DNA of 62,214 bases, filler included, from Candidatus Woesearchaeota archaeon (GTDB lineage Archaea > Nanobdellota > Nanobdellia > Woesearchaeales > GCA-2687795), in NCBI GenBank assembly GCA_030753365.1. It is 5 parts of 5 records of this genome, joined end to end, with 100 filler letters (N's around TTAATTAATTAA, not from the genome) between each part and the next. Parts side by side here need not be neighbours in the genome. Positions count along the whole stretch, not along the records: positions 1 to 24,254 come from JASMCJ010000007.1; 4 more parts are not named here. One strand, 5' to 3'. This document shows positions 3,001 to 9,000 of this stretch, piece after piece. Made by a program: the position numbers. The first letter of the stretch is position 1; each line of letters begins with the position of its first letter.

Positions 3001-6000
3001 AAAAGAAATCAAAATTACCAACAAACCGACAGAAATGATTGACATCTCAGTAAAAAATCAAAACTTCATTGCAAATGGTATAATTGTACATAATTCAGCA
3101 GCAAGATTCTCCAGAATAAGAGAAGGCGCAATCAAAGACCACTTCAAAAAGGTTGCAGAGCATATAAAAAACGAATTCCTTGGCAACAAAAATCTAAAAG
3201 GTATCATAGTCGGAGGTCCTGGCCCTTCAAAATATGACTTTGTAAACAGTGACATAATCACAACAGAACTCAAAAGAAAAATCATAGCAATCAAAGACCT
3301 ATCCTACACCGGCGAATTCGGTCTCCAGGAATTATTAGACAAGTCAGGAGACGTACTAGCCAAAGAAGAAGTAATGGACGAAAAAAACATCATGACAAAA
3401 TTCTTTGAAACCCTATCAAAAAAGCCCGGCATGGTATCCTATGGAAAGAAAGAAGTAATGGAACAGCTAAAGAACGGCACAGTTGAAACCTTATTATTAT
3501 CAGAAGAACTGGACGAAACAGAAATAGAACAGTTTGAGGAAGAAGCCAAAGCAGTAGGAACAGAAGTCAAAATAATCTCCACAGAAACAAGAGAAGGCGC
3601 CCAGCTAAGAGACATGAGCATGGTAGGCGCTATCTTAAGATATGATGTAAGTTAAGCCAATACCAACCTAACTGTCAAGAACCACCTATCATACACTCAA
3701 AAACTGGATGGAAAATTCAGACATTTTATAAATATATATAGTTTAATACTTCATGGGTTTAATTCCCTGTTGCTTGCAACGGCTGGATTAAAACATGAAG
3801 TTTAAAAATACCTCACAGCTTGCTGTGATTGGAATTTTTATTAATTATTTAGTTTGGGTTTTATACCCCGATGCTTGCATCGGCTTAATACGCAAACTAA
3901 ATACTAAAAATACCCCGCAGCTTGCTGCGATTGGGATTTTTTATTAATAGATTAAAATGCCAACTATAAACTTTTCATTCAGGGACTTGCAAGAGCTAAT
4001 CGGAAAAAGGCTCACAATAGACGAGCTAAAAGACTTACTATCCTACTGCAAAGCAGAATTCGAAGACTATGACACAGCCTCAGACGAAGTCAAAGCAGAC
4101 TTTGGCGACACCAACCTACCTTACCTATGGAGCGTTGAAGGAGTAGCAAGGCTTCTAAAAGGAGTTCTAAATTTAGACAGGGGCATACCTCCAATCAGGT
4201 TCAGCAAGAACGGCTACAAAATCATTGTAGACAAATCAACAAAAAAAGTAAGGCCATACATCGCAGCCTTTGTAGCAAAATCATACAACATCAACGAATC
4301 CTTCCTAAAACAATTAATCCAGCTCCAGGAAAAGCTCTGCGAAAACTATGGCAGGAAAAGAAAAAAGGTATCCATCGGGCTATACTCTTACAAGCGAGTC
4401 AAATTCCCTGTCCACTACAAAGCAGTCCCTCCTGACTCAATCAAGTTCACGCCCTTGGAAGGCACCAAAGAACTAAACCTCAGCCAAATCTTAGAACAAC
4501 ATCCCAAAGGCATAGAATATGCCAAAATCCTAAAAGGCTTTGACAAATACCCAATCCTAATAGACTCTGCAGGAGAAGTGCTAAGCTTCCCTCCAATCAT
4601 CAACTCAAACTTCTCAGGAAAAGTTGAAATAGGCGATGAAGAACTATTCTTTGAGGTCACAGGAGATGACCAGGACGCAATCCTTCTGGCAACAAACATC
4701 TTTGCCCAGGCACTATACGAAAGAAGCTTTGAGCTCTTCAGTGTTGACATCAGATACTCAGACAAAAGAATCACAACACCTTCTCTATTCAAAGACAAAC
4801 TAAAAATTACCACAGAAGACGTAACCAACCTTCTAGGCCTTGACCTAAAAGACACAGAAATCAAAGCACTATTAGAAAAAGCAAGATACGATTACAATAA
4901 AGGTTCAGTACAAGTTCCTCCTTACAGAAAAGACATCCTTCACAAAGTAGACGTCATAGAAGACATAGGCATAATGTATGACTACAACAAGATTGAAGAG
5001 TTACCATTAAAATCCTACACCATAGGCGAAACACTGCCCATCACAAACTTCATAGACAAAATAAGAGAACTCATAGTAGGCTTTGGTTACCAGGAACTCC
5101 TAAACCCAATGCTCTCCAACAAAGAGCTCCTCTACAAAAAGATGAACACTCAGGACTTTGGCACAGTGGAAATAAGCAAATACCTCTCAGAAACATACTC
5201 AGTTGTAAGAACCTGGTTACTACCAATCCTACTTGAATTCCTCTCAAAAAACAAGCATGTAGAATACCCACAGAAAATCTTTGAGCAAGGACTAGTAACC
5301 TGCAGAAAAGAAGACAAAATCATTGACTATGAAAGATTAGCAGTCATAAGCGCTCACTCAGAAGCAGACTTCACAGAAATAAAGAAAGTTCTGGATGCCT
5401 TAACAAGATCCTTAGGCATAACCTACACAATAGAAGAAACAGAGCACAGTTCTTTCATCCCTGGCAGAGTAGGCAGAGTAATCATCAAAAACAGAAAAGT
5501 TGCATACATAGGAGAGCTATGCCCAAAAGTAATAGGCAACTTTGGCATTGAAGTCCCAGTAGTAGGATTAGAATTAAACCTCACAGAATTATATGAAGCA
5601 ACCAAAACAGACTAAACCTTTAAAAACCCCTCTTACTTTCTATCATCTGCATGTGTAATGACTTAGTGAACACCCAATGAGGCGCAAGCCGATGATTAAC
5701 GGAAGTAACTTAGGAACGCATGCTTTTTTTCAATCAATTCTAAAATCAACGCAGATCCTAAACACACCCGGAGAAAACTGTCCGCACTTAACCGTTCTAA
5801 GAATCTTAAACTTCATCTTGTTCCTCTTGCACGCCTCATTAATCTTATCATGAGCTTTTCCAAACTCCTTCTCATTAAGAAAATCATAAAAATGAATCAC
5901 ACTCTTTTTCTTAGAACAAGCCAATGCGCAATCCAGAAAATCCTCCGCAGACTTAGGCAAAGGCATAACAATCCTGTCAAAACACTTCTTAAACTTCTTA

Positions 6001-9000
6001 AGATACTTCCATGACGAAATCATCTCTTCAGCCTTTATTTCATCTATGCTTCTTATTTCCACAATCCCCTTAGTCACCAAAGGCAAAATTTTTTCCAACT
6101 TAATAACAGACTTTTCATTAATCCTTGAGCCATGCACATCATTCTTATAATCACTAATATGAAAATAAGTATTGCAATATTTTTGTATATCTTCTATAGC
6201 TTTAGCCATAGAATCAGGCGAATAATTATGCAGCAAATGGCATGTATCAATACACACATTTCTTATTCCTGCTGCCTTAACAACATCAATAATCTCCTCT
6301 TTAGTCTTAATCAGGTTCCTATGAGAATGTTCAAAATAAATATTCTTATAATACTTCTTAAAAGTTTTTGCATTAGCTATAACATCTTTCTTCTCAGCAC
6401 CCTGTGACGCTCCCATAGAAAAATGAACAATCAATTCAACTCCAAACTCATCAACAAGCGAAACCATCTTTCTATAAATCTCATTCTTTATATTAGTATT
6501 AGCCATATCAAGCCCTGGCGAAAAAATATGCGGCTGATGCACAACCACAAACATACCAGAATCAACAAACTCTTTGACATCTTTTCTAAGGTCCTCAAAA
6601 TTCACATCAAAATCAGACTCAAACGTATGAATCTCAATAATTGAAGGATTACATTCCAGGCGTGAAGCCATCTCATCTTTTATCACAGCACTCTTAAGTC
6701 CAATCATCTTCTGATAAAAAACAGGCACAGCCTTCTTAACATCATCATTAATCAGAAAAACATTAGCCAGCTTATTCAACCTAACACTCTCCATCCCGCA
6801 CCTATGCGCATCGGGATTAATCTCAATCCCATAAACAAACTTAGCCTTAGAATTCTTTGCGATAACCAGAGGATAAATTCCACACCCAGAAAACATAACC
6901 AAAACATCTTCACCAGCTTTAATCTGTTCATAAATCCTCTTCCTCTCAGTACTCAGCCTAGAAGAAAAATAAACCTTCTCAACATCAATCTTAACCCTCA
7001 CATCATTCTCCTTATGAACAGTCTCCTTCCTATTCTCCCCAGCCAGCACCTTCATCTTCTGTGTCCTGAAAACACCCTCATGCATCCCAGCCTTCTTGCA
7101 AACCACCTTAACATTCTTAAGCAAAACCAGCAAAGCATCCGCAATAATCTTCTCCTTCTTAACCAGCTCATCAGGAATCTCAATAATAGCAATATCTCCT
7201 ACAAGGTCAAAAGCAGCCCTAAGATAAGAAAACTCCTTCTCTGTCAGCTTTCCCTTCAAAGCCCCCCTCAACGTAGTAGGTTTTTTCATACTATAATCAA
7301 ATAAGCCCCTAAAATCATCAACACCGAAATCACAATCCTATAAGAAAGATACTTCTCATGGAAAAATGTTCCTCCAAAAATAACAATCATTAGGCTGGAC
7401 AAAATAATAATAGGCATTACCAATGAAACATAAGCCATTGAAATCGCTTGAAGCGCAAACAAACTCCCTGCAACTGAAAAAAGCGCAACAACAAACGGTA
7501 AATACCTTGTCTTCTTAAGACAAGCTTTAATCTCCTTAAACCCATACAGAAAAGCATGGACAATATTAAAATTAATAGCAATAAACACCCATATAAGAAA
7601 AAAATAAGTAAAAACATTAGTAATCTTTGACCCTATAATATACTTATCAAAAATAGAGCCAATACTAAAAAGGAACATTGCAAAAATAAAATAAAGACTC
7701 TCTTTAGACTTCATCAAATGCTTAATCGGCGCAACAAAATCTGACAAATGATGGTCTGCCTCAAGCAGGTAAGCAGAAACCAGCAAAATCCCTATCCCAA
7801 TCATCTGCTTAACACCCAACGACTCTGAAAGGAAAAAATATGCAAGCACTGCCACAAAAGCAGGCCTTAGGTTAGCCAATGGTGAAATCAATGAAATATC
7901 ATTATGTCTAAACGCCTTTGCCGTAAACAAAATACCCACAGTCGCAATCAGCGAAACTCCATACACCAAAAACAAAATTCCCTTATCAAAAGACCAATCC
8001 ATAAAAGGAATCAGAAACAATCCAATCAACACAACAAAAATTGTTCTAATTGACTCAAAATTCATAGCATGCGCCTTCATAAGCGCCTTCTTCCTTGCAA
8101 TCTGAAACAAAGTATAAAAGATTGCAGCTCCAATTGCAAAAACATACCATTCCATTTTAAACATCATTTTAGTTATGCTATTCTCACATCATATTGTAGG
8201 GGTGGGCCATTGATTAGGCAGCTATAAGGGGAGGCTCTACATATTTAGTCGTTAGACTAAATATACGCATCTAACCCTTTCTGCATCTTCTCCTTCTTAT
8301 CCTCATTCAACTCATCAACAGTCTTCATCACTCTCTCCTTTGAAAAATCATGCTCTTCAACCAGCATCTTAACCAACTTATCAGTGTCAGCGGCTTTCCA
8401 TTCAAGCTCATAATCATCACTAACCTTCATCTTCTTAATCAAATAAAAAACCTCTGTCCATGGGAACTCAAAAAACTCTCCCCACTTAACCTGCTTAAAC
8501 AAACCTTCAGGATCATCCTTAAACTCCTTAACCAGCTTCAACGCATTCTTTGGCCCAATTCCCTTAATCCCTCCAGGATTATAATCAGTGCCAACAAGCA
8601 TACTCAAAATAATCAATTGGTCATGCTCAATCCCCAGATGATTAATATTCTCATCCAGCTTAATCATCTCAGGCTTAATAGTACCATAAGCAAGCTTATT
8701 AATCTTCTTCCTTTTCCCAAGAATAGAAAGATTCCTCACCAATCTTGTTGCTCCAAACAGCAAAGCATCAGCATCATTCGAAGCAACAGCAAACCCATCA
8801 CCTCTCTTAACAATATACGCAGCCTGCGCCTCCGCCTCTGACGGTGCATCTATAACAGGCAATCCCAGCGCTTTAATTAATTTTTTAGCCTCATCAATCA
8901 TCTCCTTGTTTAACCTACTCGTCCTTGACGCAAACTTCTTCATCCCTTCTACATCCTTCCTCTTAACAGCCTCTTCATACTTCTTCATAGCTTCAAGCTT

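Follow-up and report, generated by a model that had tools for sequence, protein, structure and literature searches.

A metal-site barrel of the AP_endonuc_2 superfamily nested in archaeal Trm5 behaves like a site-specific passenger of the trm5 gene

The window (the whole stretch of DNA analysed, 62,214 nucleotides with filler, joined from five records of the Candidatus Woesearchaeota archaeon assembly GCA_030753365.1) carries a trm5 gene whose methyltransferase domain is interrupted by a second, complete barrel fold (Table 1). The host is a small marine archaeon. Pfam assigns PF25133 to residues 8-86 and splits PF02475 into two stretches, and the middle of the open reading frame matches PF01261 at E 2e-6, which is below the cut-off. 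PDB entries of Trm5a and Trm5b align to residues 21-189 and 437-518 of the protein. The insertion point falls between helix D and strand 4 of Trm5, just before the most conserved motif. The congener G001 has an uninterrupted 274-residue Trm5, as the initial annotation reported, and its gene order is identical. The spacing between the residues corresponding to D183 and F437 is 253 residues here versus 11 in G001, and thus the insert is about 242 residues long.

Table 1 Features of the trm5 locus (window positions)
Feature	Position	Strand	Remarks
trm5 gene with nested barrel	5730..7289	(-)	519 aa, without D1 domain
Trm5/TYW2 D2 domain, residues 8-86, including R75	7032..7268	(-)	PF25133; 5wt1 alignment (R75 = PaTrm5a R133)
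Rossmann domain part 1, residues 90-189, with Y107, E115, R116, motif I MFSG and E156; ends in helix D	6723..7022	(-)	
25-codon flank 5' of the junction, residues 160-184	6738..6812	(-)	Seems to track insert, not host
Nested AP_endonuc_2 (beta/alpha)8 barrel, residues about 190-429	6003..6722	(-)	Edges uncertain by about 3 residues
Rossmann domain part 2, residues 430-519, motif IV P443-L-P445	5730..6002	(-)	

Structure models agree with this architecture. The full-length model (pLDDT 91.3, pTM 0.88) rejoins the two Trm5 halves as a Trm5 fold (TM 0.75 on 5yac) and the barrel modelled alone reached pLDDT 94.9. An assembly chimera was ruled out, because positions 5835-7338, and hence both junctions, are covered with 0 differences by a contig of another study, one not listed as source, and no joint that skips the insert was seen in any of four runs. 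Domain matches, PDB alignments, models and the independent contig together confirm the nested barrel described in the initial annotation.

The host protein is an intact Trm5, composed of D2 and a class I Rossmann methyltransferase domain, an arrangement shared with archaeal Trm5a/Taw22 (P. abyssi PAB2272, PDB 5wt1/5hji) and Trm5b (5yac, 2zzn), neither of which has the 242-residue barrel between helix D and strand 4. The SAM and catalytic equivalents R75, Y107, E115, R116, E156 and P445 are present by alignment to PaTrm5a, in which Y107, E115, R116 and E156 align with F165, E173, R174 and E213, and P443 and P445 with P260 and P262; the Trm5 motifs are kept in 39-43 of the 44 inserted alleles. 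The roles of the PaTrm5a residues R133, F165, E173, R174, E213 and P262 have been described (PMC5113207, where the arginine is numbered R134), as has the rule that aTrm5a/Taw22 proteins carry Pro/Thr, not Asn/Asp, at the NPPY position and a motif A without YEH. The present protein has the aTrm5a-type prolines in P443-L-P445 and a T-E-R motif, and lacks the YEH of Taw21. NCBIfam scores lie far under all Trm5 cut-offs (Trm5b best at 214 of 600 bits, Taw22 189 of 550). The protein thus appears aTrm5a/Taw22-like by motif, and its subfamily is not settled because NCBIfam slightly favours Trm5b. The Trm5 part is predicted to make m1G37 and, as a Taw22-like protein in a genome that encodes TYW1, may also make imG2.

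The nested domain belongs to the AP_endonuc_2 superfamily by its (beta/alpha)8 fold, E/D/H/E metal core and structural matches of up to Z 20.9, and PF01261 is matched by 35 of 44 members at E<=0.01. The conserved barrel residues are K199, E219, H251, P253, H289, E320, D348, H351, H377 and E411; positions D380 and H386 vary. Of the 98 fused barrels, 94 keep all seven core ligands, which makes a second active site likely, and E320, D348, H377 and E411 are found in all 98 rows. The 17 fusions with invariant residues of the initial annotation were reproduced, with the exception that at wider sampling position 380 is Asp in 73 and Asn in 21 of the 98 barrels. In the model's secondary structure helix D continues directly as strand 1 of the barrel, whose last helix leads on to Trm5 strand 4, and thus the barrel would be tethered with its non-catalytic side to the sheet edge that lies across from the SAM/G37 pocket.

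The endonuclease IV/UVDE ligand set originally proposed for the barrel is not supported. Endonuclease IV (Nfo; M. tuberculosis 5zhz, E. coli 1qtw) has a similar fold (Z 16.9-18.3), is the best PDB sequence match of the barrel profile (E 7e-8) and shares seven of nine ligand positions (HxP, H, EN, DxxH, HxxD and the last Glu). However, its DxH loop (which we take to be D229/H231 in the E. coli enzyme) is missing, the barrels having a single H, D or E (49, 30 and 14 of 98) in a shifted register. The DNA wedge, presumably R37 (the Arg after strand 2) and Y72 (the Tyr after HxP), is not conserved either; Tyr occurs in only 6 of 98 barrels (Phe in 28) and no Arg is conserved at residues 220-229. 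A further difference from endonuclease IV is that a strand 1 Lys and a strand 2 Glu are invariant in the barrels, and against the endonuclease IV model the barrel scores 18.5 bits versus a cut-off of 129.65. UVDE, although first by Foldseek E-value, ranks 45th by fold (Z 14.6), the UvdE Pfam model matched none of 44 inserts, and with the barrel profile UVDE reached E 0.88. The best structural matches are non-DNA AP_endonuc_2 proteins with extra His ligands, namely 3wqo and 2zvr (tagatose-epimerase-like), Art22, TTHB071 and CbiR (Z 18.6-20.9), 3wqo, 2zvr, Art22 and TTHB071 being at the top; CbiR gave weak matches in 13 of 65 members. Identity to these proteins is only 12-19%, and a GLK start and an [HDE]-x4-GxGxID loop set the barrel apart from them. 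To our knowledge none of them is nested within another enzyme.

The barrel is patchily distributed. Fusions were found in 45 of 401 genomes and free copies in three, Trm5 being present in 375; about 88% of Trm5-bearing genomes lack the barrel. All 11 matches among 139 genomes of the phylum came from the same order, to which all listed genomes of that draw belong. Full and empty trm5 alleles coexist in five genera, the empty linker having 11 residues in 56 of 82 cases. The proposed Trm5 subfamily is not supported, carriers being dispersed over the Trm5 tree (23 changes). EF-2 rejected insert clade B (p 0.0016), as did the Trm5 halves (p 0.017), and the insert rejected an EF-2 98* group (p 2e-33), the groups for these tests having been picked after viewing a tree. 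The Trm5 halves gave no significant conflict with clade A (p 0.43) or clade C (p 0.46), nor did EF-2 with clade C (p 0.17) or the insert with two EF-2 groups (p 0.34 and 0.15), and the EF-2 test of clade A is perhaps confounded by paralogues, G206 and G332 each having two EF-2 copies. For some lineages whole-gene transfer is not excluded.

Within this pattern single events can be read from the trees. G098 lies in a host clade (support 98/94) with four proteins of 70-75% identity, whereas their barrels are only 26-29% alike to that of G098, which is 56% alike to the G011 barrel; this pattern suggests a barrel swap within one host clade. Empty G001 pairs with insert-bearing G000, and P0002, which also has the insert, branches outside this pair (support 98/93), a topology that implies a precise loss of the barrel in G001. 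Relocation rather than loss was rejected, since the empty congeners gave no free copies above E 1e-30. The G033 barrel has lost its metal histidines and is decayed and catalytically dead, the only clear case of decay. The upstream flank (residues 160-184) is 48% identical to that of the empty congener versus 81% elsewhere. Full-versus-empty congeners are more diverged in this flank (-0.16, n=15) than matched pairs (-0.04, n=18, and -0.06, n=13); the difference has p 0.004 with non-independent pairs, the family-wide partial correlation is weak (0.20 versus 0.17 elsewhere) and the signal could be structural co-adaptation instead. Base composition gives no sign of a recent foreign origin: insert GC3 (0.31) is below the 0.45 of the two Trm5 halves (p 0.0015), but it matches the mean of the genome (0.34), and over 43 alleles GC3 follows that of the host (r 0.94).

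At wider sampling the barrel is not confined to Trm5 fusions, as it was among the 17 proteins of the initial annotation: free-standing relatives in Bacillota and in Woesearchaeales form a family that shares its invariant residues. A profile search gave 773 barrel relatives, and 94 of the 167 classified had no Trm5 part (some are fragments); in GTDB 225 loci were confirmed, the best 80 being from Streptococcus, Lactobacillaceae and one Oribacterium MAG. When only the insert served as query in a word-based search (lengths 132-420), none of 226 candidates matched, a sensitivity limit; the profile search did recover free forms. In the Bacillota-type free clade (37 rows, median net charge -10) the equivalents of K199, E219, H251, H289, E320, D348, H351, H377, D380 and E411 are present in 35-37 of 37. 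The free relatives are single-copy, acidic and retained across lactic acid bacteria, with neighbours that differ between genomes. A phage origin was rejected: PHROGs gave no match for 65 members and annotated phages none for two queries, the matches on mobile DNA being one plasmid and one viral contig.

Inteins and homing-endonuclease introns show the same traits: one fixed site in a near-universal gene, patchiness within genera with a history separate from the host, swap, loss, decay and perhaps a co-travelling flank. In contrast to these elements, the insert remains in the folded protein. An intein was excluded, as neither a Hint domain, an N-terminal C/S/T nor a C-terminal H-N was found at the insert, whereas the same library picked up the eRF1 intein in the same window. 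An archaeal intron was also excluded, since bulge-helix-bulge motifs at the junctions of 43 loci were fewer than expected (7 versus 21; mean duplex z +0.2). The barrel is not a stand-in for a missing endonuclease IV, because the genome encodes a separate endonuclease-IV-like gene.

The barrel thus appears to be a site-specific passenger that is lost, swapped or decayed at one spot across related archaea. The explanation we favour, at about even confidence, is that it is an autonomous di- or trinuclear hydrolase, likely a phosphoesterase, moved by recombination through the trm5 flanks. It would be the whole enzyme of an uncharacterised AP_endonuc_2 subfamily lodged in one tolerant Trm5 surface loop, likely with a substrate of its own (most likely a phosphoester of a small non-tRNA molecule, hydrolysed by a two- or three-metal mechanism), and trm5 alleles would trade barrels by homologous recombination across the conserved flanks. 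Both the hydrolase chemistry and recombination as the vehicle are suggested by knowledge of the family. An H-H-E plus E-D-H-E glutamate-bridged centre is common to endonuclease IV, CbiR and TTHB071, and TTHB071 has phosphatase activity. CbiR is a protein of this fold that can hydrolyse a small-molecule phosphoester (bioRxiv 10.1101/2020.09.02.280537). Against the phosphoesterase reading, sugar-epimerase-like proteins head the fold list, and isomerases and iron oxidases (MbnB, TglH) also use this ligand set. The repeated use of one site would be explained by recombination alone, with no measured advantage, and Trm5 is the only fusion partner among close relatives (69 fused proteins), which fits a functional link to tRNA and counts against the favoured explanation.

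Such a link could mean that the second active site works on tRNA, a generic form of the initial annotation's view: as a 3'-phosphatase or phosphodiesterase it would mend broken or damaged anticodon loops brought by Trm5, with a benefit only in certain conditions. The exclusive partnership, the metal site conserved in nearly all fused barrels and the leading position of endonuclease IV among PDB sequence matches would fit this idea, as would the translation genes beside some free copies: TrmFO at several Streptococcus loci, NFACT plus RsmB in G242, and a YbaK-type editing gene close by in 22 of 81 free-copy loci. We nevertheless consider it unlikely, since the inferred geometry turns the barrel mouth away from G37, tRNA-related neighbours were absent at all 15 loci from the order of G588, most relatives lack the barrel and the free Bacillota form is acidic, its hosts using TrmD. 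A wyosine-specific role was excluded in particular, there being no association with TYW1 (match missing in 5 of 35 fused genomes versus 4 of 22 empty ones). Together with the dead G033 barrel and the residues kept in free Bacillota members, these data speak against the initial annotation's claim that the barrel acts on G37 tRNA. Still less probable is a homing nuclease that dispenses with splicing: an endonuclease-IV-fold enzyme would cut or nick empty trm5 near the junction, be copied in by gene conversion at one codon position, spread between distant Woesearchaeales and be tolerated as a folded domain in the surface loop. The intein-like behaviour (a single site, genera with both alleles, conflicting trees, a swap, a precise loss, decay and an upstream tract that may co-travel), the fold related to nucleases and the site right before the most conserved motif all favour it. 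However, we know of no homing endonuclease with an AP_endonuc_2 or endonuclease IV-type fold, the DNA-wedge residues are not conserved, decay is rare, PHROGs and annotated phages (two queries) lack the barrel, and lactic acid bacteria keep single-copy, acidic, free-standing relatives.

The barrel might also have another activity unrelated to tRNA, either on sugars or keto acids (as an isomerase, epimerase or dehydratase) or as an iron-dependent oxidase. Tagatose-epimerase-like proteins and Art22 are the top folds (Z 19.5-20.9), the more distant relative P0143 is fused behind NeuB-SAF, and lactonase, HAD, NAD epimerase or glycosidase genes occur among the neighbours of some free copies. We judge this quite improbable, as no consistent sugar operon surrounds the free copies and the extra strand 3/4 histidines form a second metal site, which is absent from ketose epimerases with a single metal. 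A service to methyltransferases, either clearance of SAH or repair of damaged SAM, seems very improbable. It was suggested post hoc by three free Woesearchaeales copies, next to RsmB/NOP2, to a SET gene (two genes from a Cfa-like methyltransferase) and to an MTA/SAH-deaminase-like gene, by locus L227, which is flanked on both sides by DNA methyltransferases, and by metE-metF upstream in L168. The predefined test failed: SAM-methyltransferase families were absent from the 29 scanned neighbours (29 of 37 ORFs) at 15 new loci, and no SAM methyltransferase lay beside two new metagenome loci.

We found no Trm5-barrel fusion in the literature, and the new element is a barrel that behaves like a site-specific passenger of trm5. 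It points to a metalloenzyme family that is uncharacterised, has a strongly conserved site and is testable in cultivable lactic acid bacteria instead of uncultured archaea. It also provides a clear natural case in which, with no splicing machinery involved, a whole enzyme domain comes into a single loop of a near-universal gene, is swapped there and leaves again; this implies that distant Woesearchaeales recombine. Should the barrel repair tRNA, it would represent a new tRNA-repair activity. Should it drive its own spread, it would be a mobile element of a new class, joining inteins and introns as a third type of self-spreading insertion.

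Structures of Trm5a and Trm5b align to residues 8-189 and 437-518 of the 519-residue protein, whereas its middle gives a weak match to PF01261 (AP_endonuc_2). The predicted models are confident (pLDDT 91.3 for the full length and 94.9 for the barrel), and in the full-length model the two halves rebuild the Trm5 fold. Both junctions are spanned, with zero differences, by a contig whose study is not labelled as the source, and a joint skipping the insert was found in none of the four sequencing runs searched. These data bear out the proposal of the initial annotation that a barrel is nested in Trm5. 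The uninterrupted Trm5 that it reported from a same-genus genome (G001) was also recovered: this 274-residue protein lies in the same gene order, its halves are 72% and 79% identical to those of the fused protein, and a linker of 11 residues replaces the 253 that separate D183 from F437. Named homologues of the fused protein are from Woesearchaeota, and the sequence occurs in marine and vent metagenomes. In GC3 the Trm5 halves, at 0.45, clearly exceed both the insert (0.31) and the genome average (0.34). The N-terminal D1 domain (PF18093, in 9 of 17 fused proteins) comes and goes even inside one insert clade.

Coordinates of the fused gene and of the other features discussed
Feature	Location	Strand	Remark
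trm5 with nested barrel	5730-7289	-	ORF, 519 aa
Span of GC3 measurement	5733-7289		Trm5 halves and insert
eRF1 with intein	1025-3655	+	intein in GGQ loop
Separate endonuclease-IV-like gene and TYW1 of the genome analysed (G000)	G000:C47:14331-15203 and G000:C39:3706-4686		
G040 trm5 with other insertion	L060:1974-3209		no barrel-profile match
Decayed barrel in G033 trm5	L064:1758-2396		in frame
Free barrel among methyltransferases	L227:3217-7781		140-kb IMG/VR contig

The host enzyme keeps the equivalents of P. abyssi Trm5a E173, R174, E213, P260 and P262 (5wt1 alignment). According to PMC5113207, aTrm5a has Pro/Thr where aTrm5b/c carry Asn/Asp, and YEH marks Taw21. The P-L-P and T-E-R found at these positions make the fused protein putatively Taw22-like, although NCBIfam scores Trm5b slightly above Taw22, both far under cut-off. 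It is the sole strong Trm5-family match in the genome (two weaker matches exceed the Pfam cut-off), and TYW1 is present above its cut-off. Trm5 motifs are retained equally in inserted and empty alleles, and the Trm5 part is predicted to methylate G37. The barrel had been tied to G37 tRNA as well, but no wyosine link emerged: among the fused genomes 5 of 35 gave no TYW1 match, two of these (G206 and G208) being 100% and 97% complete, versus 4 of 22 with empty alleles.

Within the order, Trm5 occurs in 375 of 401 genomes and the barrel (E < 1e-30; next match at 1e-15) in 48, free in three and fused in 45, of which 42 were checked whole, two are truncated by contig ends and one (G101) was counted from a 524-aa frame. 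Every checked insert occupies a single common site, and genera g1, g31, g60, g72 and g160 each contain full and empty alleles. Insertions seem to favour this loop. G040 carries an unrelated insertion of ~126 residues in the same region, and the G028 linker has 38 residues.

The metal ligands had been called invariant from 17 fusions; over 98 fused rows this holds for E219, E320, D348, H377 and E411, whereas H251 and H351 (like K199) are each found in 97 and H289 in 96. The complete core of seven ligands is preserved in 94 rows. These seven positions match endonuclease IV, but the proposed endonuclease IV/UVDE ligand set is not supported and membership of endonuclease IV fails: the DxH loop is replaced by a single H, D or E in a different register and conservation at the wedge positions is absent in the barrels examined. 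E411 was mapped by its location at the end of strand 8, and hhalign places it two residues off. Among PDB sequences the barrel profile matches M. tuberculosis endonuclease IV best (E 7e-8). Structural Z falls from 3wqo (20.9) through 2zvr (19.8), Art22 (19.5), TTHB071 (18.6) and M. tuberculosis endonuclease IV (18.3) to UVDE (14.6); Foldseek E-values rank UVDE first, yet at a TM of 0.55. TTHB071 has phosphatase activity.

Mapped on the 126-row tree of Trm5 halves, the insert label requires 23 changes, 11 of them forced by starred branches. The tree comprises 44 inserted rows, counting the decayed G033 and unrelated G040 inserts, and 82 empty ones, picked because they were top hits or relatives of carriers; a motif mismatch led to the removal of two rows. 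Insert clade B was rejected on the host marker EF-2 (p 0.0016) and on Trm5 halves (p 0.017). Clade A was rejected on EF-2 (p 1e-5), where paralogues may confound, but the halves restricted to carriers did not reject it (p 0.43); clade C was rejected on neither. Of four EF-2 groups tested on the insert, two were rejected; all tested groups were named only after a tree was seen. G206:C16 and G332:C123/C16 have two EF-2 copies each, and genus g160 falls in a long-branched EF-2 clade. Two genomes, G315 and G337, are unpublished: G315 was part of clade B in one analysis and G337 of the trees, and G182, G207 and G209 figure as empty rows. None of them underlies the EF-2 result for clade B or the direct cases of G098, G001 and G033.

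The host clade of G098 (98/94) includes four proteins with barrels 26-29% like that of G098. The G098 barrel is instead 56% like the one in G011, a member of another family, a pattern that reads as a barrel swap. As the insert-bearing P0002 is sister to G000 plus G001 (98/93), G001 most simply would have lost its barrel; its 25 upstream residues are 48% like those of G000, compared with 81% over the rest, which is what the entry of an empty segment by recombination would produce. In G033 the barrel has decayed in frame: its metal histidines are gone, and so are two glutamates.

The barrel is not confined to Trm5 fusions. Its profile matched 773 proteins, and of 167 classified, 69 have Trm5 parts, 94 lack them (fragments among them) and four are other. 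The barrel tree holds a Bacillota-type clade of 37 rows and an archaeal free clade of 17, each on a starred branch at 99. Farther off lies a group with P0143, in which the barrel is C-terminal to NeuB and SAF domains; this fusion hints at a sister subfamily that may act in nonulosonic-acid synthesis. GTDB loci confirmed for the Bacillota form number 225 (the best 80 retained), and it occurs in 2 of 351 genomes of the phylum and 16 of 141 of one order; it is acidic (median net charge -10) and retains the same conserved residues.

Genes around free barrels differ (AI-2E transporter, DegV, HAD, lactonase, TrmFO), and neighbours at 15 further loci are unrelated. SAM-methyltransferase neighbours at four loci would fit SAM/SAH clean-up by the barrel, but the link failed on new loci in a test set beforehand, and we consider this role very improbable. 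In L227 the free barrel has a C5 DNA methyltransferase on one side and two N6/N4 methyltransferases on the other; a third N6/N4 methyltransferase lies upstream, as does a thymidine-kinase-like gene. A relative lies on an 898-kb Pontibacillus plasmid.

An intein or archaeal intron was rejected, as neither intein nor bulge-helix-bulge signatures were found in the inserts examined; homing by the barrel without splicing seems a poor prospect. The eRF1 intein has LAGLIDADG and HTH domains, and it and the Trm5 barrel, which lie within 3 kb, are both missing from G001 (eRF1 of 365 aa). Isomerase or oxidase chemistry is, if anything, slightly less probable than homing, and repair of tRNA ends by the barrel is unlikely, if less so than either. 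The preprint bioRxiv 10.1101/2020.09.02.280537 describes CbiR, an AP_endonuc_2-superfamily relative, as hydrolysing the phosphoester of a small molecule, so that the superfamily is able to do so; TTHB071 is mentioned in PMC3084264.

No description of the fusion came up in listings of full-text literature, with few subscription papers among it, on Trm5 with Woesearchaeota, endonuclease IV fusion, domain insertion/DPANN or Woesearchaeota intein/homing. Evidence for a barrel swap, an exact loss and a decayed copy at a single Trm5 site, the failed endonuclease IV membership, the missing wyosine link and the free-standing Bacillota family are additions of this analysis. From the secondary-structure topology of the model, the face by which the barrel is attached appears to be the non-catalytic one, and the attachment to lie on the edge of the sheet across from the SAM/G37 pocket. 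The reading with the best support, to which we give an even chance, is that the barrel is a passenger in Trm5: an enzyme working autonomously as a metallohydrolase, likely a phosphoesterase, which would be housed in a tolerant Trm5 loop and would spread between trm5 alleles by recombination through their conserved flanks.
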